NCBI GenBank assembly: GCA_019358935.1
Contig: JAHHIK010000090.1
Location: forward strand, 1 to 34,341
Origin: Tolypothrix carrinoi HA7290-LM1
Lineage (GTDB): Bacteria > Cyanobacteriota > Cyanobacteriia > Cyanobacteriales > Nostocaceae
Direction: 5' to 3'
DNA: 34,341 bases
The position numbers and the translations under genes are program-made. How positions within the stretch are numbered: position 1 is the first letter of the stretch; each line of letters starts with the position of its first letter. Of this stretch, positions 1,563 through 24,695 are shown in pieces. The notes under the pieces were generated by a model. It did no database searches, was not told the origin of the DNA, and saw only the letters and a list, made by a program, of their open reading frames with translations.

Positions 1563-1711
1563 GGGCGAGGTCTTCCCAAGACTTATGTGGACAGCCTTCA
1601 AGGGTTCGCTCTCGACGCACGCGTTGCGCGTTCATCCGAGATTGTCGCTCTTGTGTCGAGGATCTATTAAACGAACGCTTGTGCCACATAAGGCGATGGG
1701 TTATTGCAGGG
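1563..1711. repeat. Divergent copy C of the 114-bp inverted-repeat element; core inverted relative to the flanks, with a ~30 nt insert
   Basis: CTTATGTGGACAGCC...GTGCCACATAAG arms; core TTCATCCG..GTCGCTCTTGTGTCGAGGAT shared with 2110-2223 and 12388-12501. Confidence 0.75.
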
Positions 1712-2000
1712 CACATAACAAATCTAGCCGCGTCTGTCCAGGTCTATGTGGTGCCCCAATCGTGATCGCAATGATATCGGAATCAGCTAAATCGTCGTAG
1801 CGATTCGATGGAATCACATCCATTTGGGCCAGCAATGGAATGGCATCGCTAATATCCCAGGCTTGTCCTTCTGCCTTAGATAAATTGCGATCAAACAAAA
1901 CAATAGACACAGATTTGCCGAGCAGCACTAATGCATTTACGATCGCTGCGCCTACATTTCCCGCACCCACAATGCCAACTTTAGATGGTTTGATACTCAT
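1701..2000 (-). pseudogene. ldh: L-lactate/malate dehydrogenase, N-terminal NAD-binding domain, truncated by the repeat element
   Basis: KVGIVGAGNVG, KAEGQAWDISDA and GAPHRPGQTRLDLL motifs. Confidence 0.85.
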
Positions 2001-2109
2001 AAAAGTTGTGTTGCAAAAAATTAAAAATACGCTACAGGTAGTAGTCTAAAACCGAAAATTTTGCTGTTTACTGCTATATATAGCAGGTACAAAAATTGTT
2101 GTAACACAA

Positions 2110-2223
2110 CCCCTGCAACAAAGAGTCGCCTTATGGGGACAGCCTTCATCCGATGCAGGTCGCTCTTGTATCGAGGATAAGCGTAAATAAGGCTGTCCCC
2201 ATAAGTCTTGGTCAGGTGTCGCC
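2110..2223. repeat. Copy A of the 114-bp element with 17-bp sub-terminal inverted repeats
   Basis: CTTATGGGGACAGCCTT / AAGGCTGTCCCCATAAG perfect IR; near-identical to 12388-12501. Confidence 0.9.
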
Positions 2224-2227
2224 CAAT

Positions 2228-2703
2228 TCATGTCTTGAATTCGATGCCATACTTAGGCGCTGCTGCCAAAACTCTCTCAATTGCAGCAGGAGTGGCTGGG
2301 ACTGATGGAGCGTCTTTTCTGTCTACTTCAACGCCAATTTCGGCAAAAAATCTTTCAATTCCGGCAGGCATGTACCATGCCAACATCTTGGCACGCTGTG
2401 TGGTATTGTTCCTAAAGCTATGCAGATGACCCGGGGCGCGAATAAAGAAAGGTTCCAGGTGTCGCGATCGCGATTTGGTCATCCAGTTCAAACTCAAGTT
2501 CGCCCTCACTGGATGTAGAATGCTTCATCTTCTCGATGGTGAATATGAGCAGGAGGTCCAATTTGAGGATCGACTCGAACTTCAACGAGGGTGTATTGCC
2601 CAGCAGTGTTTTCGCCCACTGCCTTGAAGGTGAGGACATCTCCCACAATAGAGAGGGAAGTCCCTTGACTTGGTTTCATTAACAGTCCATGAGGGAGAGT
2701 CAC
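2228..2703 (-). pseudogene. Cupin-domain protein (quercetin 2,3-dioxygenase-like), frameshifted
   Basis: GPPAHIHHREDEAFYI then EGELEF, HSFRN and PAGIERFFAEIG, spread over three frames; AGGAG RBS upstream. Confidence 0.85.
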
Positions 2704-2721
2704 TGTAATTTCTCCTGTTTG

Positions 2722-2871
2722 TTAGATAGTTGGTGGTGTGAACAAGCTGTTGTTTGGCTTTAAGTCGTCATCCCAAACCCAGAGCAATTCATAGTTGTGT
2801 TGCAAAACGTTGTTGAGGACAGAAATCTCCTTGAAGAAGGAATTGATGATGAGCGGCAAAAGCTTGAGCAT
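2722..2871 (-). CDS. Putative 49-aa small protein
   Basis: MLKLLPLIINSFFKEISVLNNVLQHNYELLWVWDDDLKPNNSLFTPPTI*, with GGAGAG upstream; first ORF after promoter module copy 1. Confidence 0.35.
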   Translation of the reverse strand: MLKLLPLIINSFFKEISVLNNVLQHNYELLWVWDDDLKPNNSLFTPPTI

Positions 2872-2930
2872 TCGTATGCTGCTCTCCCAGGAGTGCTGAC
2901 TGCATTAGATTCTCCTGATTCTATCTATCC

Positions 2931-3030
2931 CAAGTGTACTAAGTTCCAATACTTGACTTCTTTGGCGATTCTTATGGCAGTTTGTCAGATTCTTATGGTA
3001 AAGAGCGAACCTATTGCTGAGTCATACAGG
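2931..3030 (-). promoter_or_regulatory. AraC-tail promoter module, copy 1
   Basis: TAAGAATC direct repeats 21 bp apart (2967-2974, 2988-2995) followed by a TACACT -10 box. Confidence 0.7.
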
Positions 3031-3196
3031 CGATGAGGTTTAGTAGTTTGCCTGACTACGGAGCGCGATCGCGGTGAAGTGTCTTTGTTCGTCCATAGGT
3101 TATGTCGATCGCTTTGTGCCAAGGATCGCGATTAGGCAGGAAAACGGACAGCTTCGCTGTCGCTGAAGGCAACGCCAAATTCGATGGGCATGTCAC

Positions 3197-4123
3197 TCAT
3201 TTCAGATTCTGCCGCACCCAGCGTTCGACCCCCAAGATCTCGATGCCTCGCTGGGCATTGAATGTCTTGTCCACCTCCCACGAGACTCCTCTGCCCTCCT
3301 TTGAATACCACCCTGTACTTCCTCATGGGGTTGTCAGGATCTTGCGCCAGTTCGTCCTTCAACTTGGGCACGCTCCATTCCACCCGCTGCACCTTCCGAC
3401 CCAAAACAGAGTCCACGATGTCCGCCAATTGTGCGTAGGTGATTGTATCGCCAGGCGTATACACAATGCGGTTGACGACCCGTGGTTCGGCAAAGAGGAT
3501 TTCCGCCGTCAGAGTGCCGATATCTTCGGGGGTCGTGACCGTAACGGCAGTGTCCCAACTCTAAGTGCGCATGTACGGTGTTTTGGGCCAGGTCAACCAC
3601 GCCGAAAGAAGGCTGGAACAAAAAGCTGGTGAACATACCCGTCGAAACAATGACCCATTCCGTGCGGTCCTGAGATCGCAGGAGGTCGCGCACGTCGAGC
3701 TGCTCATCGAACAGGTCCTGCGCGCTGCCTCTGCCGATGACATCGTAGTCAACGCCGAATTGCCGGCGTGAAGTAGCGTTTCACGCCGGCATCGAGAACG
3801 GCGCGGGCGAGTTTTCGTTGGATGCCGCTTCCAGCCACGAAGCCAGTGCAGCCGATCACAGTGTGGAAATGTCCGAAAAGGACGGCGAGGTCGGTGATGG
3901 AGTCGGCGACGAGGTCGCCAAAGAGGAATTTGACACCGAGAGAATGGAGTTCGGCGATGTCCCGTTGTTTGCTTGGGGCGTGGGAAGCGATGGTTGAAGG
4001 ACCCAGGAGAACCGTGAGGGTAGTACCAGAAAACGGAGCGGCGCGCTTGGCTAAGTTGCGAAGAACGGACATGCCGAGTTCGCCGGCACCTAGGACGAGA
4101 ATAGGAGTGTCGTATGACATCAT
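3197..4123 (-). pseudogene. NmrA/isoflavone-reductase-like aromatic alcohol reductase, several frameshifts
   Basis: ILVLGAGELGMSVL, WVIVSTGMFTSFLF and YTPGDTITYAQLAD motifs in successive frames; visibly GC-richer than its neighbours. Confidence 0.85.
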
Positions 4124-4190
4124 CTGAACCTTAGAGTATGAAATGAGCAGAGTTTTCAGCCGTTTTTTGCGTTATTACCCAACAAGTCTA

Positions 4191-4985
4191 TTAGGTATAG
4201 TAGGTATAAGTTCTAAAATAAGCAGTTGGTTGATAGCCTATTCTTTGATACACTGGAAAGCCAGCAGGACTTGCATGCAAAGCAGTACGTTTTTTGCCAT
4301 AGCGCTGCGCTGCTTGTTCTAGAGAGTGCCGAATAACGGCTTCAGCATAACCTTGATTTCTGTAATCCGGTAAAGTTGCAACCCATCCTAAATAAAATTC
4401 ATCGCTTATTAGAAATGTTGTCGCCGTTGATACTGGTTGATTTTCCACATAACCTAGTGTACCGAATACCGTCTCTTGCCAAAATCTATCAAGTTCTAAA
4501 GCTTCGCGAAAAGGTGCAAGAGGAAGATTATAACTAATTGCATTAATGTCAGCGACAGCTCGTCTCATCTCCAAGTTATTCACACTAACACAGTCTAATT
4601 TCGAGCTATGTGTTGTCGAAGGAAGCAGTTGCTCAGTAGCCATACCAGCGATCCTGAGTAAGGGAACAAGCCCCTGTCGAGCAAATACTTCATCGATCTG
4701 AGGATGAAGGAACTCTGGTACCCAGTCTTCAGCAACTACCATCCACCAGGGTTGATTGCGCTTTTTAGCATAATTGCAAGCCACTTTTATTTTTGTTTCT
4801 AGCTCAGTCTCGTCGTAGACGGGTTTAGTAAGAAAGACAGTATTGATAAAGACATTGTCTGTACCGCTCCAAGCGACGACTAATTCATTCGCTGCTAAAA
4901 TTTCTCCTTTGGGACATGCGCTGGCAAAGTAACTCCAAGCATTAATAAATTGTTGATTTGATACAAAAGTCTCTGATTGTAACAT
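4191..4985 (-). CDS. GNAT family N-acetyltransferase
   Basis: Intact 264-aa ORF; VATLPDYRNQGYA acetyl-CoA motif, LHASPAGFPVYQRIGY. Confidence 0.9.
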   Translation of the reverse strand: MLQSETFVSNQQFINAWSYFASACPKGEILAANELVVAWSGTDNVFINTVFLTKPVYDETELETKIKVACNYAKKRNQPWWMVVAEDWVPEFLHPQIDEVFARQGLVPLLRIAGMATEQLLPSTTHSSKLDCVSVNNLEMRRAVADINAISYNLPLAPFREALELDRFWQETVFGTLGYVENQPVSTATTFLISDEFYLGWVATLPDYRNQGYAEAVIRHSLEQAAQRYGKKRTALHASPAGFPVYQRIGYQPTAYFRTYTYYT

Positions 4986-5364
4986 GACTCACAGCTCCTT
5001 ATCGCTGATTTTTAGAAAAATTGTGGCTGTACTACGAGATCTGCGATTGCATGATTGCACTGCGCTCCGCGCAATCGCAGAGCGATAAAAACTCAGTGAA
5101 TTTGTAACCGCAAAATTAACTCAATCAAACTCCAATAACCCCAGACAATGAAATTGAGATGGCTATGGAGAAAGCGCTCTGCCATAGTTGGATGCGCCCA
5201 ACTTGGGAGCATGACAGAATTGATGCGATTGAATAAGGCGTAAGTATAGTGGAGACCAAAAATCCTTTGTGGCACCAGCCATCTGGGTGTACGAAATACG
5301 TGGTGTACCTGCCGACCGCGCTCTGCCGCCAGCACAGCCATATCAATAGCACTTTTCCCAAATC

Positions 5365-6668
5365 CTACAACTGCAACGCGCTTTTGATACTCCCCACAAA
5401 AGACAGCCGGGGGATTCTTGAAGACCATAAATGAATCTTTAATGGTGCTATCAAAGACACCCTACTGATTCCACTAAGGTCTAACCCTAGTTTTATCGCT
5501 ACTTTGGCTATGATATTTGCCGCGCCGTTTGCATCGGCATTTACCAAAATATTTTTTGCAGTTCTGAACAAACCTCGCTTAACACGTTTTCCTGATGATT
5601 GCCACTATACGCGGTTTTTCACGAAATTTAGGTATTGTATCACCATCAAGAAAGCTTGCTTTGCTTGTATAAGCTTCTTCGGCTTCTACGAACTGAATTC
5701 CATACTGTTCGCACAGTTGAGCAATTCTATCTTTTAAACGTGCTGTAGGTATTTGAACAAATTTTTGATTGTTCTTTTTCCCCATATCAGCACCGTCTTT
5801 GTGTCCTTTATTCCAACCAAAAACAACCGTGCCAATCTTGTTATTTAAACAATGGTTAATAACTAATCTGGCAGCTTTGTTAACAGCATCCCTAACTTGC
5901 CGATTACGTTTTTCAGTTATATGAGCTAACTTTTTATTCCAAAAACCTTGAGGCTTCCCTTCTTTAATTGTAGAAACTTGTTTGTTAAACCATTGATTCA
6001 TCGACTTAAGATGTCTGCCATCAATGATGAAACTAGTACCAGCATTAGAAATACAAGTTAACCAATTGTTGATACCGTGGTCTATTCCCAATACTTTTGA
6101 AGGGTCTAGCTTAACACTAATATCAGATTGTTTGTATACATATTCAATGTATAAACATTGATTTATCGGAACTCTTCTAAATTCGTTGATGTCCGCAAAT
6201 TTTAGATTTGATGGCATGGGTAGATGGAAAGCATCAAGACTAAACCAAGCTTTTACTTTGCTACCAAGAGGAAAGCGTAGTCAACCATTTTTAAGCTTGA
6301 TATCAGCTTTTGGATAAGTGACCAATGCTAAACCACCCTTACGGTATTCGGGTAGTTTAGGACGTTGGTCTACCGTTCCTTTCTTAATGCCTTTCAGTAA
6401 TCCGATGTATGACTTGAAAGATTCTGCAACTGTAGTTAAACACTGTTGAGCAACATGAGAATACATTGCTTGAAAGTGCAAATTGCTCTTAAATAGTTTA
6501 TGTAAATCAAACTTGCTAGGTATCTTGCCAGTTTTGAAATACAATTGTCTTGCATGTGGATGTTCCGCAATTAGCAAGTTTTGCAGACTCACCACACAAA
6601 AACTCTAAAATTGCACGATTATCAGCATCTGGATTAATTAAATGTTGTTGACAACCATAATTAGACAT
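5365..6668 (-). pseudogene. tnpB: TnpB RNA-guided endonuclease, frameshifted
   Basis: MSNYGCQQHLI start overlaps the tnpA stop; RuvC-like motifs LGIDHGINNW, EEAYTSKASFLD and NADANGAANI lie in separate frames. Confidence 0.9.
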
Positions 6669-7202
6669 TTTTTTGATTCTCAATGTATTGTTTGACAACT
6701 GATATCGGCGCACCACCAACAGTTGAAACAAAATAACTGTTTGTCCAAAGTGTTGGTAGTCGTGATTTTAACCAAGGAAATTCTTGTCTAAGAAATCTTG
6801 ATGAACGCCCTTTCATGTATCGGACAATTTTTGCAATCCCAAACTGTGGGTCTGCTTCAACCAAAAGATGTACGTGGTCTGGCATGACTTCCATCTCTAT
6901 AACCTCGCTGTTAAATTCCTTGGCAACTTCTAGAATAATTTCTTTGAGACGAACATCAACGCCATGAACTAGTACTTTTCGGCGATATTTAGGACACCAT
7001 ACAACGTGGTACTTGCAAGAATATGTGATATTGTTGTTTGACTTGTATTTTTGGTTCATGCAATCATTATATGACAGCGAGCCATATAATGATGTAAAGC
7101 CAAGATCAAGATTATATGAAGCTCATCTGTATAATCTTCAATGCGAAGGTGCTACCGACTTATCCCCGTGTCTAAAGCCAGGGGCTTGCGTCTCGCTTCT
7201 CG
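5384..7202 (-). mobile_element. IS200/IS605-family insertion sequence (tnpA+tnpB)
   Basis: Inserted 3' of TGAC, right end TCAA, sub-terminal hairpins (CCCCTGGCTTTAGACACGGGG; CCCCCGG...GTGGGG), no target duplication. Confidence 0.92.
6661..7059 (-). CDS. tnpA: IS200/IS605 Y1 (HUH) transposase
   Basis: Intact 132 aa: YHVVWCPKYRR, DHVH HUH motif, LWTNSYFVSTVG, QYIENQ. Confidence 0.95.
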   Translation of the reverse strand: MNQKYKSNNNITYSCKYHVVWCPKYRRKVLVHGVDVRLKEIILEVAKEFNSEVIEMEVMPDHVHLLVEADPQFGIAKIVRYMKGRSSRFLRQEFPWLKSRLPTLWTNSYFVSTVGGAPISVVKQYIENQKNV

Positions 7203-7625
7203 GTCATTGAAAATGTCGAGGGATTTAATATCTCGTTCTGTAACAACTTCACCAGTGAATTGGGCTTCTCCCGGAAATATTGGACGATGTTTTCTGTCCG
7301 TATATTGACCTGTGGCGATCGCAACATATTCAAATGTGTCTTCGTGACAGCCATCTGTGTTTTGGAATCGCACTCCCCAACCATCCTCTTGTTCTTCAAG
7401 TGCCAGAACTTCGTGTTTGATTTGAACATCAATCTGAAAATGATTGACCGCTGCACGCAAATATTGTTGGATTTGGGTTCGTGTGGGATGTAAATCTGGC
7501 GCAAAAGGCCAGGGAAAATCGGATAAATGATACTGCGAACTGATGTTTTGAAGGCGAACTTCCAAGTATGCTACAGCCCATACACCGCCAATCTCTGTAG
7601 ACTTCTCAAAAACAACAGCCTCATA

Positions 7626-7969
7626 TCCTTATCGAGCGCGATGTCAGCGATGAAGAATGGGCATTTGTCGCGCCGTACTTAACGTTAATGACCGAAGATG
7701 CGCCGCAACGCGAACACAGCCTACGAGAAGTATTTAACGGCTTGCGGTACGTGGTGCGAACTGGAGGCGCGTGGGGCTATCTGCCGCACGACTTACCCCC
7801 GTGGCATACTGTCTATGAGCGCAGTTTCGCTTGGATGAGCAAGTTTCGTCGATTAGCACGAGACTATGAGCGATTGGCAGAAACCCTTGCTGGCTTTCAC
7901 TTGATTGCCTTTGTGATGTTGATGGTCAAACAGTTTGTTGAAATCCGGTTTCAGAGTGCATAACACCCT
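7626..7969 (+). mobile_element. Internally deleted IS5-family (IS1031-like) element with right end
   Basis: DVSDEEWAFVAPYL...LPHDLPPWHTVY fused directly to the C-terminal ERSFAWMSKFRRLARDYERL; right IR GTGCATAACACCCTC followed by TAG. Confidence 0.85.
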
Positions 7970-8184
7970 CTAGGCGTTCTAAACCATTGTTCAAGACTTG
8001 ATCGCATTTTCGTAATGCTAGCCGGAACGGCTGCTCCGTGGCGATCGCCTCTTAAAGGCTAGAAACTGATTGACATCTACCATTGTTGTGGGGCTGATGG
8101 GAAGATGGGTGGAATAACGATAACTGGTATCAAGCATTTACTCTCATCAACCTATCTACTCACCTACTTCTCAAGAAACTAAAT

Positions 8185-8751
8185 CTAATGCATACGCTGC
8201 ATCAATGAATTAGAGGGCAAATTCGGATTGAGAACCTTCTCAGCACTTTCAGCACCCACAACGGGTAGACTGTTGGTATCAATCAGCCCCAGTTGAACTA
8301 GAACAGAAGCTTGATCCCAATAAATGTGTTCGTGTGCTAACTTTCCGTCTCTAAAGCGAACGATCGCAACCACTGCTACTTCAACCCGCTTTCCGGTTGG
8401 GGCGAGACCGGGTAACATCCAGTCCATGCGAATCGTGTGCGTGAACTTAAGCACCATTTCATCCACTAGCCGATCGGTGCCGATCGTACGGGAAACAGGA
8501 ATTAGTTCTGTGTCAAAAGGCATCTGCGGAATGAAATGTTTGGAGTAAAACTCGCGCAGCTGGTCTAATCCAACGCCTCCGGTCATGACTGGAATGCTAT
8601 TAACGTAAGCATCGGGAACCATTGTGGCAAGCGTTGCCTCCGTATCACGCGTTGCGAACTCGTCTGCCAGGTGTTCTTCCCAAAGGGCTTGCAGAACCTC
8701 CTGTGCAGGAGTAAGTTTTGTCTGTAAATTCGAGATTGTTTCACCGCTCAT
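8185..8751 (-). CDS. SnoaL-like ester cyclase / NTF2-fold protein
   Basis: Intact 188 aa; DEFATRDTEATLATM, WMLPGLAPTGKRVEV, HEHIYWDQASVL; CAGGAG RBS. Confidence 0.88.
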   Translation of the reverse strand: MSGETISNLQTKLTPAQEVLQALWEEHLADEFATRDTEATLATMVPDAYVNSIPVMTGGVGLDQLREFYSKHFIPQMPFDTELIPVSRTIGTDRLVDEMVLKFTHTIRMDWMLPGLAPTGKRVEVAVVAIVRFRDGKLAHEHIYWDQASVLVQLGLIDTNSLPVVGAESAEKVLNPNLPSNSLMQRMH

Positions 8752-8945
8752 AATTAACTCCTGAGTGCGATTCGTTTAACCCAAAAAGAGTAGAAATACT
8801 CTTGGGAAGGTTAGCTAGGTAAATCAACCTAGACAACTTGGATTTCTGTATGGGTGAAATTCCCATCCTACAGGTGCAGTAGTGACAGCATATCCCTTAC
8901 GGTAGCGACTAGTCATCAATCCGTAAAGCAGGGATAAAAGACGTT

Positions 8946-9154
8946 CAGAAGGCAGCTATGCTGAGGGCAGAGGGCAGAAGGAACCCACCCTTAAAAGTGT
9001 GGGATTGAAGCAAGGACACCGTTTTTCCTCGCGCTCCTTTTCTCGAAAAACATCTTTTTTTTAAATGGGCTTTAAACCCATAACTAAAGTTTTTTTTTAG
9101 AGGGCAGGAGACAGAATGCCTTCAGCATAGCTGCCTCCTGCCCTCTGCCTTTCT
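8946..9154. repeat. MITE-like element bounded by inverted GGCAGA(G/A) heptamer (STRR) arrays, inside intron domain I
   Basis: GGCAGCTATGCTGA / TCAGCATAGCTGCC inverted ends; the reverse complement of 9121-9154 matches 19670-19703. Confidence 0.75.
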
Positions 9155-9583
9155 TTGTAACTTAAAATCCAATTGAGAACCCCGTCGAGCATAGCTGGTC
9201 ATGAGTAGAAAACGAACCCTTGATAGAACCATCGTAATAGTTAACAAGCCTACGTGGATTATTGGCTTGCCCAAAAAGGGAAAGGATAATTGACAAATTT
9301 TTGTCAAAATGGCGAGGCAACTTCGGGATTGACCGAGCAAGCACCCATAATAAACCCGGTGGAAAGAGGGACTCTAAAACCAGCAACAAACGGAAAACCA
9401 GGAACGAAGTAACCCGAACGTATGCTCTTGTAGAAATGGTCGAAGCTACAAGCAACTGCTAAGTGAATGCTACGGAACGGGAAGGATTGCCTAAAAAGCA
9501 AATGCCTTTGGGAAAGCCAAAGGATAAGCAGACGTAGGCACGATGATTTGGAAGGTAAAGCTATAAGTAGCAATGTAGAAGTT

Positions 9584-11342
9584 ATGAGCGAGTTAAAGAC
9601 TACGCATGAATGGAACAAAATCCCAAGCGCGAAAGCTAGAAAGGAAATTGTTTAAGTTGCAAAAACGGATTTACCAAGCCTCAAGTCGTGGTGATGTCAA
9701 AACAGTCCACAAACTCCAACGACTATTGATGAAATCCTGGGGTGCAAAATGTATTGCAGTCCGGCGAGTCACACAGGAAAATTCAGGCAAGAAAACAGCC
9801 GGAGTAGACGGAGTTAAATCATTAAACCCAAAACAAAGGTTAAAACTTGTCCAAAATCTGAAACTATCCCAGAAAGCAAAACCAACCAGAAGGGTATGGA
9901 TTCCTAAACCTCATGGGGAAGAAAAGCGACCCCTGGGAATACCTGTAATCACAGACCGTGCTGTACAAGCATTAGTAAAATCGGCACGCTTTGCCAGAAT
10001 GGGAGGCGCATTTTGAGCCAAATAGTTACGGCTTTAGACTCTTGTCGCTCATGTCACGATGCAATTGGAGCAATATTCAACGCTATTAAGCAAGGGTCTA
10101 AATATGTGTTGGATGCCGATATCTCGAAATGCTTCGACCGCATCAACCATCAAGCCTTGTTAACATGCGTTAAACACATTCCCCGCCATGCGTCACCAAA
10201 TTAGAGCGTGGCTCAGAGCAGGAGTGATAGATAATGGCGAATTATTTCCTACAACTGTTGGCACACCACAAGGCGGGTGTATATCGCCTTTATTGGCAAA
10301 TATAGCCCTTCATGGCATGGAAAACTGGGTACACCAAAAGTTTCCTAAACAGCAACCAAAAGTTGACGGCAAAAGAGTATTTACTCCCAGCCCAATTTTG
10401 ATTCGCTATGCAGATGATTTTGTGATTTTACACAAAGACATCGAAGTCATTCAAAAATGTCAACAAGCTATGGCTCTTTGGTTATCAGACATGGGCTTGG
10501 AATTGAAACCAAGTAAAACCAAAATTTCCCATACACTTTATGAGTATGAAGGAAAAGTTGGGTTTGACTTTTTAGGATTTTCAGTTCGACAATATCCTGT
10601 AGGAAAGAATCGAGCAGCTAAGAATCCAAAAGGAGAACCATTAGGTTTCAAAACACTCATCACTCCAAGCATTGAGAAAATCAAACAACATACCTCAAAA
10701 ATTGGAAAAATCATCAAAACATATCATGCTGCTAATCAAGCGCAATTGATTAAAAGATTGAATCCAATCATTAAAGGATGGACAGCTTACTATTCAACAG
10801 TAGTGAGCAAACAAACCTATAATCAAGCTGATTTATGTACATATCAGCAACTCTTTGCCTGGGCAAAACGTCGTCACCCTAAACAAAATCATCAACAGAT
10901 TGCTCATAAATATTGGTCAACTGTTGGCAACGACCATTGGGTTTTTACCAATAAACAGTCGGGCAATATCCAGCATTTAATCAAACACCACAAAACTCCG
11001 ATAGTGAGACATATCAAGGTGCAAGCAGAACGCAGTCCTTATGATGGAGATTGGGTTTACTGGAGTACGAGAATGGGCAGACATCCAGAAGTTAAACCAG
11101 AAATAGCCATACTTCTGAAGAAACAAAAGGGTAAATGCTCTGAATGTGGACTGTATTTCCAAGATGAAGATTTGTTGGAAATAGACCATATAATTCCTCG
11201 CTCAAAAGGCGGAAATAACAGTTACCAAAATAAACAATTACTTCATCGACATTGCCATGATACTAAAAGTGCAAATGATAATAAATCATTCATTTACACA
11301 CTAGAATTAGATGAGGATTATCTAAATGATAATCCTTTCTAG
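9584..11342 (+). pseudogene. ltrA: Group II intron reverse transcriptase/maturase with HNH endonuclease; frameshifts in the 5' third
   Basis: GKKTAGVDG, KRPLGIP, VLDADISKCFD, GTPQGGCISPLLAN, YADD, and C-terminal CSEC...EIDHIIP...HRHCH. Confidence 0.93.
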
Positions 11343-11624
11343 AGGTTTGTATGACAAACACCAAATCATTGAGGAGCCGTGTGAATCGAAAGGTTCATGC
11401 ACGGTTTTGTAGCCGAGTCAGGAGGGTGACTTCCTGGCTTAGGCATCTTTCACTGTTATGGTTCATGTTGTAGGTCATTCTATGCAACCTATCGTTGATA
11501 CTAGGAAGTGTTTCCTAATTCTTAAACTTTAGCCTTGACGACGGAACCTCAAATTGACTAATTTCAATTGTTCAATTGACTGCACTCTGAAGCTAACTCA
11601 AATGTAAACAGCGTGGTCTGACTA

Positions 11625-12387: not shown

Positions 12388-12501
12388 CCCCTGCAACAAA
12401 GAGTCGCCTTATGGGGACAGCCAACATCTGTAAAATGTCGCTCTTGTATCGAGGATAAGCGTAAATAAGGCTGTCCCCATAAGTCTTGGTCAGGTGTCGC
12501 C
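12388..12501. repeat. Copy B of the 114-bp element
   Basis: Same length and flanks as 2110-2223, differing only within a ~15 nt stretch of the core; bracketed by a GAATG (up to CCGAATG) direct repeat. Confidence 0.9.
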
Positions 12502-14660: not shown

Positions 14661-14925
14661 CAGCCCCTTCGGGGTGGGGTGTGGGGGAGCCACTGCGGTG
14701 GACGGGTTTCCACAGCAGTAAGCAAGTGGCGTTGTGGGGTGTGGGGTTGCATGTCGAAAAAGCCCCGAAGGAAAGGGTACAGAGCAAGTACTTTTAAGTA
14801 TGGAAAAATCAAAAAGATGTATTTTGAGGCACTACGTGCGAAAGATACGGCATCCTTGTTTGAAACCCCTGATTTTAATTATGGGGTTCCCTACACCCCA
14901 CACCCGAAACCTGCAACCCCCTTCA
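14661..14925. repeat. MITE-like element with inverted GGGGTGT heptamer ends and a nested short dispersed repeat
   Basis: GGGGTGTGGGG ... CCCTACACCCCACACCC; nested GCCACTGCGGTGGACGGGTTTCC...GCAAGTGGCGT hairpin typical of cyanobacterial short repeats. Confidence 0.6.
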
Positions 14926-15007
14926 TAAGGCTGGCACACTTGCAACAGCTTCCCAACAGCTTGATAACACTACCTAACGGTTAACAGAGTGCATGAATTG
15001 TGCTATC

Positions 15008-15971: not shown

Positions 15972-15991
15972 GATGTTGCTCCTTTGATTGA

Positions 15992-16898
15992 TTAACGAGT
16001 GATGTAACCACCATTGATAAAGATCGTTTGACCATTGACCCAGCGAGACCGCGGTGAAGCCAGAAATTCAACCAGTGGCACAATGTCATCAATTTCGCCT
16101 AAGCGTCCTGCTAATCGGGTACCCGCCGCGATTCCTTCTGGCGTTAGCGATAGCGCGATAAAACGGAGTATCGACTGGTCCGGGTGCAATCGAATTGACT
16201 GTAATGTTCCGTCTCCAGTCGATTTCTTTTGCCAGTGCGCGAGTAAACTGCTCCATTGCTGCCTTGGTTCCGGTATAGGCGGAATAGTTGGGAATGTTGG
16301 CAGCTAAAAGAGAACTCACAACGTTAATGATTCGTCCATTATCTGCAATCCGTCGAACGGCTTCCTGCATGATAAAAAACGCCCCTTTTGAATTGATGCC
16401 TGCTTTTCGATCGTAGTCTTCTTCTGTAACCTCCGCCAATGGCTTTTTCACCGATCGCCCTGCATTGTGAACCACGATATCGACTTTTCCAAAAGCTTTC
16501 GTTGTTTCATCGAATAGCTTTCTGATATTGGCAACTTGAGAGAGATCAAAAGAAACGAGAAGTGCCCGTGTTCCCTGTTGCTGCACTAAACGAGCCGTTT
16601 CTTCAGCCTGGTCGCGCGTGGCTTCCCGATGATAATGCACGACAACCGAAGCACCGTTACGAGCGAGTGCAACAGCATACCCCCGACCAAGATTGTTTCT
16701 AGCACCTGTGACGATCGCGACTTTGCCTGTGAGTTCCCGATTGGCTCTTGTTGCCAAAGACGGATCTGTTTGAGGTGGGTTCTCTGATTGTGCATTAGCT
16801 TGTCCAGCCGCGTTGGCGAAGCCTCTCCCTTGGAGAATCGCACCGACGACACCAGCGCCTCCAATCGCACCCAAGAATTTACGACGATTCGTGTTCAC
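15992..16898 (-). pseudogene. SDR oxidoreductase with twin-arginine (Tat) signal peptide, frameshift near 16160
   Basis: NRRKFLG signal, TGARNNLG, HNAG, YTGTK catalytic motif; C-terminus [13 protein letters not shown] in a second frame; GGAGG RBS. Confidence 0.88.
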
Positions 16899-17046
16899 AA
16901 TGACCTCCTAGGGCTAGGTTTAACTGAATTTCCTTGATTTCAATTAAACTAAACTCAACCTACAAAGGACATGCACATTTTCTAGATAGACTTGTTTATT
17001 TTTAAGCGTGGAAAAGCCCACTGACAATGATTGAAAAAACCAATGC

Positions 17047-17964
17047 TTAGCTTTGTAAGCTTTGTCGAAAGTTCAAAGGGGACAGTAAAGCATGTTTTTT
17101 GAAGAATTGGGAGAAGTGGGCTGCATCCTTAAATCCCAAGCGAAAAGCAATTTCCTGTACCGATTCCGGCGATCGCGCCAACATTGCCTTAGCCTCAGCA
17201 ATCGTCTTCTGGGCAATCCAACTGTTTACTGATTTACCTGTTTTGCGTTTGATCGCTGTACTGAAATAGCTGGGATGTAAATACTGTGCTTGGGCATAGT
17301 CCTGCACTTGAAAAAGGTGATCGCACTTGCCTGCTTTTGAGATCGCGAAAGTGTGCTTCTTTGATTGCGCTTGAAGGTGAGTACGATCGCAGAATTGGTT
17401 GAAGCTTCAGTCAATGGATCATAAGCTTTCCAAAACCGTTCTTTAATCTTGAACAGCAGCACCACGGTTAAACTCCCAATCACTTTGAACTTATAGGCAG
17501 AATCCGATTGATACTCTTGCAAAAGCTGACCACCTAAGTCATCAAAGATTTGAAAGATCTCGCGATCGGGATAACTCGGTGGCGCAACTTCAGCAATCAG
17601 GAATGGAAACTCATCCAAAATATTCTCATGAACATACTGCTTGAGAAACGATTCTGTGAAGGTAATTATATATCCATGCCATAGTTCATGAATCTCGTAT
17701 CCCTTCACATGACCCGGATTCGTAAAATAAATTGTGCTGTCCTGGGTGAGATAGGATTGATCGTCGATGATATAGCGACCTCGCCCTTTGCGAATGATTA
17801 AAACTGAGTAAAAGTTCGTCCTTTAAGAGTGGAGGCTTGACCGGAACCTCTGTGTGAATTTCCTCAGTCCGATGAACCGTAAAATCAACGTCTTGCTCTA
17901 GCTTGCTGCCCATTGAGGCATGAAGTTCTGACATCGAATTGTAGGTTCTAATCGCGTCATTCAT
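17047..17964 (-). pseudogene. AraC family transcriptional regulator, two frameshifts
   Basis: C-terminal HTH: VQDYAQ..LHPSYFS..IK..TGKS and SVQEIAFRLGFKDAAHFSQFFKK. Confidence 0.88.
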
Positions 17965-18119
17965 TAGTATTCTACTATTTGGTTAAATACCTGCAACCTT
18001 AGTACCGGACAAAAGCTTGCAACGGAAGAAGAGGAAAGGGTTACAATCGACGAATTATTGCGCGTTCTCCGATTTTGTCGCCTTGTGAGACTGTAAGTCA
18101 CCGTCAGTATAACACAATA

Positions 18120-18206
18120 GGCTAACGATCCTGTTCAGCGGTGACGAAAAAACTTAAACGATCGACGAAGGAACCTTGCACGTCCGCTGCAACAGGCTGG
18201 TTATGC
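18120..18206 (-). other. Solitary integron attC-like recombination site (87 bp)
   Basis: Minus strand GCATAAC-CAGCCT-GTTGCAGCGG...CCGCTGAAC-AGGATC-GTTAGCC: AAC/GTT core boxes and paired L boxes with one unpaired base. Confidence 0.7.
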
Positions 18207-19165
18207 CGCTTGCGCCAAAAACGAGGCGGAGCAATTGATTGACCTCTGTGGGGCGTTCCCGCCCAATCCAGTGTCCGGTATTTGGCAGCAATACCTTTTT
18301 TCTCAAGTTCTTTATGTTTTTTCTAGCTGGTTGATGAGATCTCGATTTAGCGTCACGGCTGCATCGAACTCTCCCCCAATAAACAAAGCAGGTTGTTGGA
18401 GCTTCGCGCCACTCAAAAAGGGCGTGAGTTGCCAATCCTTGTCCAGGTTTCGATATCGAGCCAACCCACAGGAGCGCATCCGGTTCGCTCAAACTCCTGA
18501 GTGAGAAAATCAAGGTCTTGCTCGCTCAACCAACAAAGGAAGCTGCTCCGGTTCAGCTACACTGTCCAGAAATTTTTCTGATTTGTCGAATAGAAACCGC
18601 CACCTTTTTTCGCTCTGTGCATCCCCAGATGCGGAATAGAGCATCATGCGAAGAGATTTACTCACGTTGGCTTCTAGTTCTGCCTCTGCTAACCCTTGGG
18701 GGGCGAAAATACAACACATATAGCTGTTGCTCACCCGCCATCCGTTTTAGTATTTCCGTTGGGGGTCTACTGTCCCAAGCAAAGAGCGCGATAAGGGACA
18801 CTCAGCAAGCCGATCGCTTTAAACAAATCTGGACGTAACAACGCACAATGCCAAGCCAAAGGCGCACCTTGATCGTGCCCGATGATCGTAGCTTGTTCTC
18901 GATCAAGAGCATGAACCAGCCCAACGATATCGCTAGTTAGCTGAAGAATGTTGTATGCCTCAACTGACTTTGGCTGGTCGGTTTGCCCGTAACCCCGTAG
19001 ATCTGGCGCAACAACGTGAAATCCAGCTTCTGCGATCGCTGCAATCTGATGTCGCCAAGCGTACCAGCATTCTGGAAACCCATGACACAGGATGACAAGA
19101 TTTCCTCGACCTTGCTCAGCAATGTGCATTTTGATGTAGGGCAAACGCATCTTAAAGTGACACAA
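18201..19165 (-). pseudogene. Epoxide hydrolase (alpha/beta hydrolase), multiple frameshifts
   Basis: LCHGFPECWYAWRHQI, APDLRGYG, IGHDQGA, GHWI..E.P.EVN; stop TAA lies in the attC R'' box. Confidence 0.9.
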
Positions 19166-19321
19166 TAAAGGTTGATTTTTGAATGAATATATGCATTAAG
19201 TATACAACCGACATTCCGCAGGTTGGTAAGTTTTAAGGTCTAGGTGAATTGGCTCATATGTTGTGTTCTCGCAGGCGCGATCGCGCAGTAAAAGCGAACG
19301 CGAGTGCTGCTATCCCTTCCC

Positions 19322-19560
19322 CATTCGTGACAAGTTAAGGCAAAATTTGTTTTGTCAATAGTAATTACGCTGTAAATAATCGATACTGCTGAGTATCGAA
19401 TTAAGCCTTGTATTGAGGTTTTGGGGGAAGGATGAACGATGCTTTTGAATATGACGCGATCGCTGGCTTAAAATTTGCCTTTGGGACCGAAATTTTGGGC
19501 GATATTTTAAGCACTATTACTTATTGACAAATGCTTGATGACCTTAACTGGTCACCAATG
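19322..19560. mobile_element. 239-bp MITE, probably IS4-derived
   Basis: 19-bp IRs CATTCGTGACAAGTTAAGG / CCTTAACTGGTCACCAATG (17/19); imperfect 9-bp target duplication TCCCTTCCC / TCCCTGACC. Confidence 0.8.
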
Positions 19561-19669
19561 TCCCTGACCAGAGCGATCGCATAGCAATAGAAACCTGACT
19601 ATTGTGAGCTGAAATGGGCAAAATCTTATCTGGGCAAAGGGTTCTGCTGACCAATACAATGATAATTGA

Positions 19670-19850
19670 AGAAAGGCAGAGGGCAGGAGGCAGCTATGCT
19701 GAAGGAGCAATCGGATGGGGATTCAAACCCCAACCGATTGAATCCACCGTGTAGACGGTGGGGTTTTATACCCAGTTGGCTCCAGCCAGAAGGCTGAATC
19801 AAAGACATAATTTATACCTTCTGCCCTCTGCCCTCTGCCTTCTGCCTTCC
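19670..19850. repeat. MITE-like element with inverted GGCAGAG heptamer ends
   Basis: AGGCAGAGGGCAGGAGGCAG ... CTGCCCTCTGCCCTCTGCCTTCTGCC with internal hairpins; one end shared with 8946-9154. Confidence 0.75.
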
Positions 19851-19949
19851 GCCGAAGGCGGATAAAGCACAAGAAATTCTACTTTTTTTTAAGAAATTAA
19901 AATAGTGATTTTAGGTAACATCTGTACAAGAAAATACCTAAAAAATACT

Positions 19950-20331
19950 ATGAAACTTAAACCAAAAATTACAATTGCAGAGTATTTTGTAGACATAGAT
20001 GACCCCAGAATCGAACGTTCAAAGCTACATAAATTAACTGACATCATCACTATCGCTATCTGTGCTGTGATTTGTGGGGCTGATACCTGGGAAGATATTG
20101 AAATATTTGGTGATGCAAAGTATGAGTGGTTAAAACAATTTTTAGAACTTGAAAATGGAATTCCATCTCCTGACGGAGACGCTTCCTGAACGCATGATAC
20201 GTTTGCTCGTGTATTTTCACGCATAGACCCGAAACAATTTCAACAATGCTTCCTAAATTGGGTTAAATCAGTTAATAAATTAACAGATGGAGAATTAATT
20301 TCTATAGATGGTAAAACTTTACGGCATTCCT
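19950..20331 (+). pseudogene. ISAs1 family transposase, N-terminal fragment with a 24-nt insertion
   Basis: DDPRIERSKLHKLTDII, GADTWEDIE.FG, NGIPS[insert]HDTFARVF, ISIDGKTLR. Confidence 0.9.
20168..20191. repeat. 24-nt short dispersed repeat insertion
   Basis: Removing TCCTGACGGAGACGCTTCCTGAAC restores ATT CCA TCG CAT GAT (IPSHD). Confidence 0.7.
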
Positions 20332-20475
20332 TCGTTTTCTGATGCACAATAATTTCTGATATATTCTGAGTAATTAAATTTAATTATTCATATTAAATTC
20401 CCTTCAGAAAATTACTAATCAAATCTTATTGTTTAATTAGTTGAAATCTTTTTAGAATACGCTTCTAAAAACATA

Positions 20476-21795
20476 TTGCAGGTTTTTGGAAATTTTGGTG
20501 CGTTTGCCCTGATTGAACAGGCGATCGCTAAAACAAAAGCATCTGAGAAGCGAAATCGCTCTTTACCAGCACAGTTGGTAGTAAGTCTTGTAATTGCCAT
20601 GAGTTTCTGGTCGAGAGATTCGATGAGAGATGTGGTGAAAAACTTAATAGATGGTATATCAGAAGCATGGGTCAAAGTTGGTAAATATTGGCGAGTGAAA
20701 GCGCAAATCAGCAATAACTCAAGCCCGACAAAGATTGGGAGCAAGGGTAATGAGCCAATTGTTCCATCAGGTAGTACGACCAATGGCTAGCAACGAAACT
20801 ATCGGAGCATTTCTCAATGGACTGCGAATAGTGGGGAAGCGATGGTACTTGCTTTGATGTACCAGACAGCGATGAGAATGTAAGGGTTTTTGGTCGTCCT
20901 GGCAGTCGTCCTGGAACACAAGCAGCATTTCCCTTTCGTCAGATTAGTGATCTTGGTGGAGGCTGGAACACATTTGATTTTCGACGCATTCATGTGTCCA
21001 TATCGGTAGGAAGTGCGAGTGCGGGCATTGAAATTATTACGCTCTGTTAGTTCAGGGATGTTATTGATGTGGGACAGAGGAATACACATTCCTACGCAAT
21101 GGTACAAGCAACAGTTGCCTCAAGTTGTGATTATTTAGGAAGAATCCCAGCTAACGTCAAGTTCTTAGTTGAAGAACCTTTAGCAGATGGTTCATATTTG
21201 AGTTGGATTTATCCATCGGGTAAATTAAGAAAAAAAGGTTGTCAACCTATACTCTTACGAGTTATTGAGTACACAATTGAGAATCTCGATAAACCAGATG
21301 AACAACTGAGATATCGCTTAATTACCAGCTTGTTAGATATCGATAAATTTCCTGCCCAGCTACTGGCGATGGAATATCACCAACGTTGGGAAGTCGAAAA
21401 TACTATTGATGAACTCAAAGTACATCTTTTGGGACGAAAAACCCATGTTCGCTCTCAAAAACCGAGGGAAGTCGTGCAAGAAGTTTATGGGTCGTTACTG
21501 GGACCCAATCGCTGTGCGCTCTTTGATGTTCCAAGCTGCAACTAGGGCTGGAATCGCGCCTTTACGTTTGAGTTTTACTGGTACATTGCGAGTTATTCGT
21601 CGCGCTATCCCAAAATTTCAACGTTCTTCACCTCAAGAACTACCCTTTTTTTAAGTTGGTTGAGTGTCGAAATTCTTGACACTTTATTGCCTGAGCGTGT
21701 TCATCGAAGTAACCCTAGAGTTATCAAAAAACCTGTATCAAAGTTTCGCTCGAAAAGACCTCAACACCGAGGTAATGGTACTCGAACTCATCCTC
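20476..21795 (+). pseudogene. IS4 family transposase, many frameshifts
   Basis: KRNRSLPAQLVVSLVIAMS N-terminal domain, LLMWDRG, RLITSLLD..FPA..LAMEYHQRWEVENTIDELK (YREK-type motif). Confidence 0.88.
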
Positions 21796-21900
21796 CTGGA
21801 TGTACCAGTCGCGTAAGCTGGGTGCATCCAGTTTCGGTGGAGTCAGCCAAAACAAAGCATCTGCATCCTGTGTTGTCTCGATCAACCCTGAAGTAGAGTA
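21796..21900 (-). pseudogene. Small internal fragment of an NmrA-like NAD(P)-binding protein
   Basis: TQDADALFWLTPP motif. Confidence 0.45.
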
Positions 21901-21961
21901 GCACTGGCTGAAATCAGCTTCCAGGTTTCGAGTAACGGGTTCTCCTGAGTTGATGACACAG

Positions 21962-22668
21962 ACATGAAAATTTGAGTCGTGAGCGGAGTGTAGCCAGTCG
22001 CACTCAGCTTGAAATGGATGTGAGCCGCCCGCCAAGTGTGTCGTCCCAGGAGGCGCAACACCTCACCGCAGAATCCGCTGGTTGGTACGTTGTATCCACT
22101 TGGCACAATGGTTTCAAAGCTGTAGTTGCCGTCACCATCGGTGTAGAACTGCCCGCGAAAGTTTCCGGCGGGTTGGGATGGGTCTTGGATGTCGTACAGT
22201 CCCTTAGAGTTGGGTTGCCAGACATCGACCAGCGCATTAGCAATTGGTTCCCCGTTGACATCTAACACGCGACCTGAAAGGAACAGTGGCTCACCCTCCG
22301 CATCAACGCCAATGCGATCGCCCATTTGTCGTTCGGGTGCATTGGGGACATAGAGCGGTCTCTCTAGATTGCTCTCGGTTGCCTTACCGTTCGTGTCTTG
22401 TAGCAGCAACACTAGCTCCGAAATGCCGAGCAAATCGGTGAGCGCGTGAATTTCCCCGTCTGGGATGTCTTGCGTGTGGCGGCTAGCCCGCTACTCGGAA
22501 ATCACGCCCCTGCTGCAATTCTGGCTCGGTCAAATTTACTTCTCGGACAAAGGCGTGGAGATGCTTCACCAGGCTAGTGTAAATTTCGTACAGGCGCGGA
22601 TGGGTTTTGCCGCCGTCACCGTGGTCAATCACGGCTTGCGTAATGTTGTCGATCGTGATTGCCTTCAT
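21962..22668 (-). pseudogene. Intradiol ring-cleavage dioxygenase (catechol/hydroxyquinol 1,2-dioxygenase-like), frameshifted and C-terminally truncated
   Basis: LVKHLHAFVREVNLT, VDVWQPNSKGLYD, NFRGQF, WRAAHIHF, LTTQIF. Confidence 0.88.
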
Positions 22669-22708
22669 AAGTTGTCCCCAATGTTCGATATGTGAATGAA
22701 CTGTTGTA

Positions 22709-22780
22709 GCGATTGTGTGGATGAGCAAATGAATCGGCGCTTCGGAGCACTCTTGATGGCGCAAACTCCCAGTTCCGCTT
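22709..22780 (-). promoter_or_regulatory. Conserved leader motif, copy 2
   Basis: Ends 40 bp upstream of the dioxygenase ATG; homologous to 13049-13119. Confidence 0.55.
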
Positions 22781-22814
22781 GTCCGGATCGATATTGATCG
22801 GGACAGATTGAGGA

Positions 22815-23107
22815 CGACAATAGAGCGGTTCTGCTGAGGCAACGCCTTCAAAGCTTTGGTTGTGATACAATCGACGACGCGGGAAAGTGGTGAGATTGAC
22901 AATGTTGCGCGCCTGCGGACTTACGAGAACAATATCAGCGTTCATGCTGCGATGCAAACGAGTATTGCTGTTGTAGAGAGCAGTGCGAAATCCCAGTTGC
23001 ATAAACATCATCATATCTGCGAATGCAATTCCCGCCATCGCAGCCATCAACCGACCTCGCTCACGACTCACCTGCAACCAAGCCAGCGGGACTCGACGTT
23101 TCATCAT
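22815..23107 (-). pseudogene. devC: DevC-type ABC exporter permease, N-terminal fragment
   Basis: PLAWLQ...RLMAAMAGIAFADMMMFMQLGF..ALY.SN...FPRRRLY. Confidence 0.85.
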
Positions 23108-23113
23108 TGACTC

Positions 23114-23506
23114 CTAAAGACTAAATCGCTTCTGACGATGCGCCTTTGAGGGATATTTCAACGGCGTAAATTTTCCATATTCGGTCATCCATCGCTCTGC
23201 AACGTCCCAGCTAGGCAGTTCAGAACTGTCTTGGTTCCAGTGCACAACCGAGGCTTCATCACACCACTCAACTAATTTTGGCATCGCTTCACGGTGCGCA
23301 CCCGCCAGCATATAAGCCCGCATTGAGGGTTCATCGTCCCAAGCGGTTAGCGTCCAAAAAATTGTTCTGGTTTGCGATCGCGTGGTGGTATGAATGTTGC
23401 CAGGAGCACGTTTTGCTTGAAATTGGCTGCGAACGGCATACCCCAGAAAAGCTGGGAGATAACGCAGCGATCGTAACCGTAACCGAGTCACTGAAATGAG
23501 TGCCAT
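23114..23506 (-). CDS. DUF3291-like / ABM-fold protein (130 aa)
   Basis: MALISVTRLRLRS..., FWTLTAW, GAHREAMPKLVEWCDEASVVHW; AGGAG RBS before ATG at 23506. Confidence 0.75.
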   Translation of the reverse strand: MALISVTRLRLRSLRYLPAFLGYAVRSQFQAKRAPGNIHTTTRSQTRTIFWTLTAWDDEPSMRAYMLAGAHREAMPKLVEWCDEASVVHWNQDSSELPSWDVAERWMTEYGKFTPLKYPSKAHRQKRFSL

Positions 23507-23532
23507 GACTCTTCTCCTACCCAATTCAAGGA

Positions 23533-23651
23533 AAGCCCTCCGATTAAAATCGGGGCTACACAAACAATGTGTGCCTCCGCACACCACAAAGCAGTTGTAT
23601 CCATCAGTCCACGAAGGTGGACTTTGTTCGACTAGCCGCGAATTCATTCGC
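23533..23651. repeat. Cyanobacterial REP-like hairpin repeat
   Basis: GCCCTCCGATTAAAATCGGGGCTAC, GTCCACGAAGGTGGAC and GCGAATTCATTCGC hairpins. Confidence 0.6.
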
Positions 23652-23670
23652 CGAGTACCGATCCAATGGT

Positions 23671-24057
23671 TTAGCTGAGATCAATCCAAATCGATTTGGT
23701 GTGCGTATAGTTCTCCATCACCTCTTTGCCAAACTCGCGCCCAAAGCCAGACGCTATCAGCAAACACGATATTTGCAGATTTACCACCGAGTTCCATTGT
23801 GGTTTTCTTCAGCGTATCAGCACTGTTGCGAATGATGCCAATCCCGACTTCTGTTGAACCTGTAAAGCTGCAAAATTGTTGATCGCGGGATGCTTCACAA
23901 GCTGGTCGCCGACTCGACCACCGGGTCTTGTGATCATGTTATAGACCCCTGCGGGCAGTCTGGCTTCATCAAAGATTTCCGCGCCAATGCGATCGCAGAT
24001 AGCAGTGTCGCACTGGCAGGTTGTTGTCTGCTGCTCTACGTTTGGTGCTGGCTGCAT
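23671..24057 (-). pseudogene. Aldehyde dehydrogenase collapsed by internal deletions
   Basis: Start with GGAGG RBS, then [24 protein letters not shown] and [20 protein letters not shown] within 387 bp. Confidence 0.85.
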
Positions 24058-24081
24058 GGAATCCTCCTTGTCTTATCTAAC

Positions 24082-24163
24082 TTGAGTGTAATTAGTTTCA
24101 ACGCTCAACTTCTTTGGCGATTCTTACAACGCTTTATCAGATTCTTATGGTGTTAGCGAACCG
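24082..24163 (-). promoter_or_regulatory. AraC-tail promoter module, copy 3
   Basis: TAAGAATC repeats at 24119-24126 and 24140-24147; TACACT -10 box. Confidence 0.72.
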
Positions 24164-24272
24164 ATATCGTTCAAGAGTTTGCCCGTCGATACCTTGGACA
24201 AAACCAATGTATGCAGAACAGTTATACCCACAGATTACCGCAGCCGCTTCCTTTGAGAAATTGCTGTCGGTT

Positions 24273-24695
24273 CTAGAGAAGTCCGCCATTGGCTTGAATC
24301 GTTTGTGAGGTAATCCATCCGCCTTCCTCACTGACTAGAAACGCAACCATATTAGCGATATCGTTCGGCTCACCTAGACGACCGAGTGGTGTTTGTTGCT
24401 TCAGTTGCTCCAACACTGGTGGTGGTAATATCAAGCCATCCGTTTGAGTCACACCCGGCGAAACGTTGTTAACCGTTACGCCTCGCGCCCCAAGTTCCTT
24501 AGACAAGCACAGAGTAAATAGTTCCGATGCTGCCTTGCTACCTGCATAAAGTCCTCCTGCTGGCATGGGCAGTTTAGTCCCCTGCAACAAAGAGTCGCCT
24601 TGGTTGCCCCTGCCGTAGCCAGAGTGAGAGCGATAGCCCGACCAATGCCTTTGAGAAGCACCAGTGATAATAGCAACCTTTCCTTTAAGACTCAT
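24273..24695 (-). pseudogene. SDR oxidoreductase with a central deletion at repeat scar D
   Basis: KVAIITGAS.GIG.AIA followed almost directly by LYAGSK, GVTVNNVSPG and PLGRLGEP. Confidence 0.85.
24579..24604. repeat. Core-less scar (copy D) of the 114-bp element
   Basis: CCCCTGCAACAAAGAGTCGCCTT is identical to the left end of copies A and B, followed by GGT as in the right flank. Confidence 0.8.

Follow-up and report, generated by a model that had tools for sequence, protein, structure and literature searches.

The 34,341-nucleotide contig JAHHIK010000090.1 of the cyanobacterium Tolypothrix carrinoi HA7290-LM1, referred to here as the window, carries copies of a gene-less repeated element of about 110 bp whose two ends are unlike and whose core can lie in either direction. 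With slightly better than even confidence, we explain it as a non-autonomous unit that would be moved in trans by a serine transposase of the IS607 insertion sequence (IS) family, and whose core would be flipped by template switching at a hairpin. A first-pass annotation had instead proposed a miniature site-specific recombination system with its core forward, inverted or absent. The non-autonomous mobile character and the unlike ends claimed there are upheld by gene-less copies, empty sites and clonal bursts; a dedicated system for inversion or excision found no support, as clonal bursts keep one direction and the arms around the core are separated by about 46 bp. Direct observation shows that copies insert at G-G-G or G-A-G and multiply in clonal bursts, that their ends are unlike and their arms co-vary, and that the interior can be replaced and is found in both directions.

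Plain letters A, B, C and D denote the window copies, and numbered labels such as C2, C12, C75 and C174 denote contigs of the 7.96-Mb home genome (G000) and the copies on them, the window itself being contig C90. Copy A (2112-2221, minus strand) has its left end at 2221, its right end at 2112 and a reversed core, with junction dinucleotides at 2222-2223 and 2110-2111; its invertible unit (2130-2205, to which no strand applies) consists of 15-17-bp arms at 2130-2146 and 2189-2205 around the core. Copy B (12390-12499, minus strand) also has a reversed core, and its junction dinucleotides lie at 12388-12389 and 12500-12501. Counted with their junctions, A (2110-2223) and B (12388-12501) are two 114-bp units of 93% identity, and both follow the plan first proposed for them, in which a flank X, an inverted-repeat arm, the core, the complementary arm and a second flank Y succeed one another; the termini, as had also been stated, are not inverted repeats. 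Copy C (1566-1710, plus strand) runs from left end to right end with a "forward" core and contains an extra small hairpin insert at about 1597-1632. Its left junction dinucleotide, GG at 1564-1565 (plus strand), has the preferred G upstream, in a register deduced from empty sites, and its right one at 1711-1712 bears one mismatch; the left arm of its subterminal inverted repeat occupies 1582-1596 (plus strand), with an imperfect partner at about 1678-1692. The ends of C (placed at 1563-1711 in the first-pass annotation) are reversed relative to those of A and B while its core keeps their plus-strand direction, so that this core is, as claimed, flipped with respect to its ends. In the predicted folds of A, B and C, the two arms pair with each other; A and B fold with z-scores of -5.6 and -5.9, with none of 200 shuffles as stable.

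Copy D (24579-24601, minus strand) consists of a right-end stub only, lying within a short-chain dehydrogenase gene. It had been taken for the core-less state, X joined directly to Y. Its 23 bases do equal the first 23 of A exactly; bases 24602-24604, however, are native to the host dehydrogenase gene, whose orthologue in G080 aligns up to 24602, and the rest of Y is missing. By this comparison, D is a right-end stub at a deletion junction rather than a clean empty state; because 24602-24604 also match Y, the stub may have arisen in two steps, by way of a core-less intermediate. The host gene has lost about 100 codons, a size deduced from Pfam positions.

Orthologous empty sites were identified for C75 in three relatives, for C146 in two and, less exactly, for C17 in two; only an overlap within a G-run is repeated in these cases, and in two further empty-site pairs, both between L009 and L177, the overlap is again all that is repeated. 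The search for empty sites returned no orthologue for C168 or C178 and unclear junctions for C2, C12 and C180. A survey of 32 copies that have the end type seen in the window shows equal first junction bases at both ends in every case (29 G, 3 A); G precedes the junction dinucleotide in 30 of them, and C never stands one position earlier. Repeats at the junctions are at most 3 bp in all 32 (2-bp and 3-bp overlaps being indistinguishable in G-runs), and the empty site of the A variant itself carries A. Where the two junctions are mismatched, as in six copies, the left one keeps G and the right one differs. Target bias is seen on both sides of the insertion point, with no consensus beyond about four bases across the 32 sites. 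The element thus inserts at G-G-G or G-A-G with a 2-3-base overlap and no target duplication, and the empty sites and the 32-copy survey together bear out the earlier statement that a DDE-type duplication is lacking.

A GG junction, a 2-3-base overlap, no duplication and unlike ends constitute the signature of an IS607 serine transposase; an IS607-type helper is therefore proposed. In the accessible parts of the published accounts, IS607 elements have GG ends and a (G)GG target, cause no duplication, and contain phased motifs as well as a subterminal inverted repeat that is imperfect (PMC6188088). The TnpA of Clostridium IS607 is reported there to prefer TGGG and, when the dinucleotides are unequal, to leave the donor's at the left end and the target's at the right, an asymmetry resembling that of the six mismatched copies (bioRxiv 2023.11.20.567912); a right end of 39 nt is stated to suffice for IS607 (bioRxiv 2026.03.11.711047). 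As far as these accounts go, the element shares its unlike ends, GG junctions, (G)GG/TGGG target and freedom from duplication with IS607, IS1535, ISC1926 and the Clostridium IS607 IStrons. It also lacks terminal inverted repeats, has a shared dinucleotide with an upstream G, and carries, by eye, two motifs 10 bp apart at each end, with the 15-17-bp inverted repeat lying 15-20 bp inside the ends. Its junction variants (GG, AG and apparently AC) match, again by eye, those of IS607 types in these genomes, and a true IS607 in G022 has six copies with GG at both ends and G upstream. The home genome contains seven IS607 tnpA matches above the cut-off. In the mechanism envisaged, TnpA would bind the two phased motifs at each end, cut at the dinucleotide and release a mini-circle, which would insert at a matching dinucleotide with G preferred just upstream. 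Separately, IS607-type tnpB copies at C35:61867-62961, C35:126-761 and C51:4945-6039 have right ends like that of the C50 element and no tnpA match nearby.

Beyond the window, a core profile search found 38 copies in the home genome at E below 0.6. By covariance model, 11 of 11 genomes of the genus are positive, as are 16 of 149 Nostocaceae genomes under stricter filters; 32 of 388 genomes of the family, none of them in the home genus, carry a sister end type, and sister families are present in other Nostocaceae genera. In all of them, a left end and its adjoining arm are followed by an interior of about 46 bp and then by the complementary arm and the right end. There are at least six end types, the subfamily counts resting on profile searches and on labels assigned by eye. 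Clonal bursts are present, for example in G002, and G015 has several identical, apparently recent copies at several sites. The interior is often swapped for, or filled with, other small repeats or other family members, which suggests that the ends may be the mobile unit and the interior its cargo. A hairpin unit that moves without the outer ends had been considered for genus g6 and was dropped when fixed ends were found there.

Several individual loci illustrate the traffic around these elements. At C174:1370-2160 of the home genome, one family member sits inside the G-run of another's core, and the inner one holds the 3' part of an IS607-type tnpB; this tnpB tail has a different right end of its own and is most simply a secondary insertion. 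At L229 (2388-2465; G009 C39), the 3' end of a group II intron (Rfam RF00029) is inserted in the core of a family copy, and at L259 (G008 C146:1661-1733) a copy lies in frame within an IS605-type tnpB, yielding a 507-codon open frame. A sister-family copy at L342 (G095 C1:4697967-4698042) separates the starts of tnpA and tnpB, which diverge in an IS605 element; the copy's right end includes a purine-rich stretch preceding the tnpB start, and a similar copy lies upstream of tnpB in L359. The site orthologous to that of C12 holds a different insertion of about 100 bp in G001 (L158; C2:581784-581890), likewise with a C-run at both limits. Into the cores of many copies, C, C1, C3, C52 and C81 among them, very small "SDR-like" hairpin repeats have repeatedly inserted at the same two fixed positions, changing the neighbouring bases.

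The core was confirmed to occur in both directions: the same ends and the same core are opposed in C2 versus C12 and in L398 versus L399-L401. Among 35 home-genome copies labelled by eye (with 34 of 35 end-type labels agreeing in leave-one-out classification), the window's end type comprises 10 forward and 7 reversed cores, and two other end types together 5 and 13. Both directions are found within each of the four larger end types, and the 58 complete copies of the sister family divide into 31 forward, 15 reversed and 12 unclear. C2 and C12 have a common 45-bp insert, and the crossover between them falls within the outer 7 bp of the arms. A core-less form, with left end joined to right end, was seen at one orthologous site in G004 and G006; all three proposed structural states thus exist at the level of the family, although copy D is not a clean instance of the third. 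The core has been lost in another way at C45:23260-23305 of the home genome, where the hairpin has collapsed and two right ends are joined in head-to-head orientation.

Each clonal burst in G002 is fixed in a single direction, and at orthologous sites 14 of 14 automatically paired copies agree (among 155 distinct copies; the sites are not all independent). C34 and L232, a pair missed by the automatic pairing, lie in opposite directions at one site, but by eye they carry different core variants.

In 22 aligned units, 98% of 330 arm cells are paired, 11 of 15 pairs have changed on both sides, and none of 500 shuffles reached so high a level of pairing. The longest perfect inverted repeat has a median of 17 bp within copies and 9 bp in chimeric controls, and repeats of at least 15 bp occur in 75 of 126 copies versus 25 of 300 controls. 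No G-U pair was found in the 330 cells, which disfavours a reading of the arms as RNA structure. At orthologous sites, short modules have changed in blocks between nearly identical flanks, at one site in both arms together, and this pattern suggests in-place rewriting of the element's modules; such block changes are seen in C75 versus L181, C168 versus L322, L313 versus L315 and C35 versus L199.

Because the arms co-vary by Watson-Crick changes, the bursts keep one direction and all 14 paired orthologous sites agree, the flip is read as template switching. Published cases of template switching at inverted repeats, in the portions of the sources available to us, show the same combination of arm homogenisation with spacer inversion (PMC8604942, PMC5941160). 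The subterminal inverted repeat would form a hairpin at which the replication fork now and then switches template; a switch within the outer arms would perfect the arms and reverse the spacer, slippage across the hairpin would remove it, and each new form would then be multiplied by transposition. Exchange between copies aligned by either arm could contribute. As judged from these sequence patterns, the flip is likely an occasional accident of replication and not a working switch.

When the family's ends were compared with those of other elements, the right end of a four-copy, tnpA/tnpB-bearing IS607 of G001 came first of 41 tails, aligning end-to-end with the family's right end (z 7.7), and the left end of the same element came second of 38 (z 3.8); these z values are inflated, an unrelated tnpB tail reaching z 4.4 and the top left-end score (z 5.4) lying away from the terminus, and the resemblance is suggestive only.

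This inflation is one of a number of points that weigh against an IS607 helper and a template-switch flip. A tnpA gene (MerR-type helix-turn-helix plus serine recombinase) between the ends is absent from every copy examined, as are a tnpB and an omega-RNA before the right end; unlike IS607, the element measures about 110 bp and has a perfect 15-17-bp hairpin with an interior in either direction. In an accessible part of a survey, IS607 elements of six other species are without subterminal inverted repeats (PMC9956272). Profiles of the family's ends did not pick out the seven resident IS607 elements and missed 30 IS607 loci of four other genomes, and identical ends were not seen in about 90 IS607 loci viewed. 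Three genomes (G003, G005 and G015) carry copies with no IS607 tnpA detected in their assemblies, which are fragmented (140-430 contigs), so that a repeated helper may be unassembled or lost. Junctions of the sister family appear to have an overlap of about 3 bp and are often mismatched, looser than a strict serine dinucleotide. As for the flip, the published spacer inversions involve 2-5 bp (PMC8604942, PMC5941160, as far as available) versus a core of about 46 bp here, where each form has also been multiplied by transposition, and C2 and C12 offered just 7 bp of identity for a template switch.

A gene-bearing parent was sought widely, the first-pass annotation having suggested looking for long versions with recombinase genes between the same ends; none was found, and no search returned an element with these ends and a transposase gene. 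The left-end pattern matched three other genomes among 300 of the family, one of them by chance, and no parent. The right-end pattern gave 16 matches in all GTDB representatives, six of them family members, and 22 stretches in metagenomes, 19 of them family members, all members being miniature in both searches. A second left-end pattern run on 389 genomes led to 50 examined loci without tnpA or tnpB, and of the more than 250 matches to the sister-family left end, 75 were examined, 58 of which had a right end and none a tnpA. The ends of genus g6 were found in 16 stretches with no gene-bearing parent among them, viral contigs gave 0 matches, and a plasmid collection gave no match. IS607 membership is unproven, given that every search for an autonomous element with matching ends came back empty and that no IS607 tnpA was detected in three of the genomes that have copies: to judge from its sequence, the element works like an IS607 substrate, a description that establishes neither membership in nor derivation from that family.

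These same gaps lend some weight to the possibility, which we entertain tentatively, that a different or unrecognised conservative recombinase moves the element, the flip again being a by-product. Examples would be a serine enzyme that is free-standing or kept by the host, or an IS110-like one whose targeting is relaxed. Besides the missing parent and the three genomes in which copies occur with no detected tnpA, the patchy distribution of the family and of its sister end type (16 of 149 and 32 of 388 genomes) fits this idea, IS607 having been detected in 4 of 5 genomes in one test and in 7 of 11 in another. The GG junction with its upstream G and the end-to-end resemblance to one IS607 speak for an IS607 helper, and the fragmentation of the three assemblies blunts the argument from absence. 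IS110 and IS1111 elements use a specific target of about 14 bp; the 32 sites show a consensus of at most about four bases, not the long one that IS110-type targeting would give, and membership in that group was rejected.

A bolder and improbable variant is a parentless, clade-wide superfamily of 105-115-bp elements, moved by an unrecognised host-kept serine-type recombinase much as REPINs are by RAYT. Its ends would have diversified into GG, AG and AC types round one hairpin core, which would be rewritten and turned in place by exchange between copies. If this were true, duplication-free insertion would have no smaller natural substrate than these elements, and they could point the way to a new recombinase.

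The agent favoured by the first-pass annotation, a tyrosine recombinase of the Xer or RIT type that would bind the arms, invert or excise the core and also move the element, now seems quite unlikely. The core-less form and the crossover of C2 and C12 within 7 bp, the size of a tyrosine-recombinase overlap, are what such an enzyme could produce, and one subfamily has the TTAT-purine look of RIT and Xer/dif arms. However, about 46 bp separates the arms, where a spacing of 6-8 bp would be expected; the junctions overlap by 2-3 bp, the ends being without a variable 6-bp coupling sequence; and no recombinase gene or trio of recombinases lies between the ends, which also lack terminal repeats. Nor is the TTAT word kept in other subfamilies: arm sequence drifts freely while remaining complementary, unlike a site read by a protein. 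The fixed direction of clonal bursts and the agreement of all 14 automatically paired sites argue likewise. The only candidate enzyme in the window, at 155-583 (minus strand; PHROG 1, E 9e-4), is an N-terminal fragment of a cyanobacterial tyrosine integrase that is not bounded by the family ends and does not belong to the element. It is truncated, as had been noted: a fragment of a 305-aa integrase, it has a 97% identical full-length copy on contig C91 with different upstream DNA, and its family has seven matches in the home genome. Members of this integrase family lie within 2.5 kb of 3 of 34 home-genome copies versus a background of 0.8%, but two of the three are C and A, leaving two independent loci (P ~0.03). 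Integrase neighbourhoods are decayed mobile regions that gather all kinds of insertions, and such clustering would explain this weak signal.

We give equally little credence to a REPIN- or IS605-like single-strand element, in which an HUH (Y1) transposase such as RAYT would act on the hairpin, a symmetric substrate that would be reflected in the two directions. Miniature elements of the IS200/IS605 type have a separate hairpin for each end and a one-sided tetra- or pentanucleotide target. RAYT-like genes score above the cut-off in 7 of 11 genomes of the genus, and the group II intron end found in one core fits a hairpin exposed as single-stranded DNA. Yet none of 23 RAYT-like loci has family copies, the best RAYT genes being flanked by other repeats, and the base preferences on both sides of the insertion point and the matched junction base are unlike one-sided Y1 targeting. 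One RAYT gene of the home genome (C1:32407-32859) is flanked by its own inverted REP-like repeats, an arrangement conserved in G009 and G004. The likeness to REPINs, in the available description, extends to an inverted doublet with a variable spacer, a hairpin, a non-autonomous nature and no target duplication (PMC3116915); here, fixed unlike ends stand outside the hairpin.

A miniature inverted-repeat transposable element (MITE) of a DDE family, of which Correia/CREE and RUP are bacterial examples, was likewise rejected: the element has no terminal inverted repeats and no target duplication of fixed length. These two features also separate it from the type II MITEs of Anabaena sp. 90, which in the part of the source available are similarly small, multi-copy, gene-less and gene-disrupting with no obvious parent (PMC3542288), the distinction resting on the published description of those MITEs. 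Finally, it is very improbable that the two core directions are assembly artefacts: contigs of the best-matching public run do break within the shared arms and contain no second orientation (as contigs, they could not be expected to reveal one), but one of them spans the unique flank, left end and core of C (1129-1625), and both directions occur in many independent assemblies with internally consistent clonal groups.

Three of the four window copies (B, C and D) mark deletion junctions. At B, a short-chain dehydrogenase gene without its 5' part is joined to a P-II gene without its 3' part, and the right end of C cuts an N-terminal lactate/malate dehydrogenase fragment (1712-2000, minus strand), the DNA past C being unrelated and holding no continuation of that gene. 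These deletions likely arose by one-ended recombination or by recombination between neighbouring copies. The window as a whole (1-34341) is rich in frameshifted and truncated genes, among them dehydrogenases, AraC regulators and an aldo-keto reductase; several remnants of IS elements are also present, as is the broken reverse transcriptase of a group II intron (9606-11342). At 826-895, with the integrase fragment on one side and a broken parA-like frame on the other, clustered short repeats have a five-base word in common with the element arms; no family profile scored there, and the cluster is possibly a partition or regulatory site. An Rfam scan of positions 1400-2400 gave no match.

In the open-access literature, to which the search was confined, no description was found of this family or of IS607-derived miniature elements; the element is apparently undescribed and its flip ordinary. 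MITEs have nearly always been traced to DDE transposases and recognised through terminal repeats and target duplications, and screens of that kind would miss it. If an IS607 TnpA does move these elements, they would amount to minimal substrates, about 110 bp long, provided by nature, and the hundreds of variants would reveal which end positions matter. Such a collection would be a test set for how this little-understood serine transposase recognises its ends and copes with mismatches at the junctions. The flip appears to be a common by-product of hairpins, of little consequence; as for the shaping of the genome, three of the four copies in this window lie at deletion junctions that destroyed genes.

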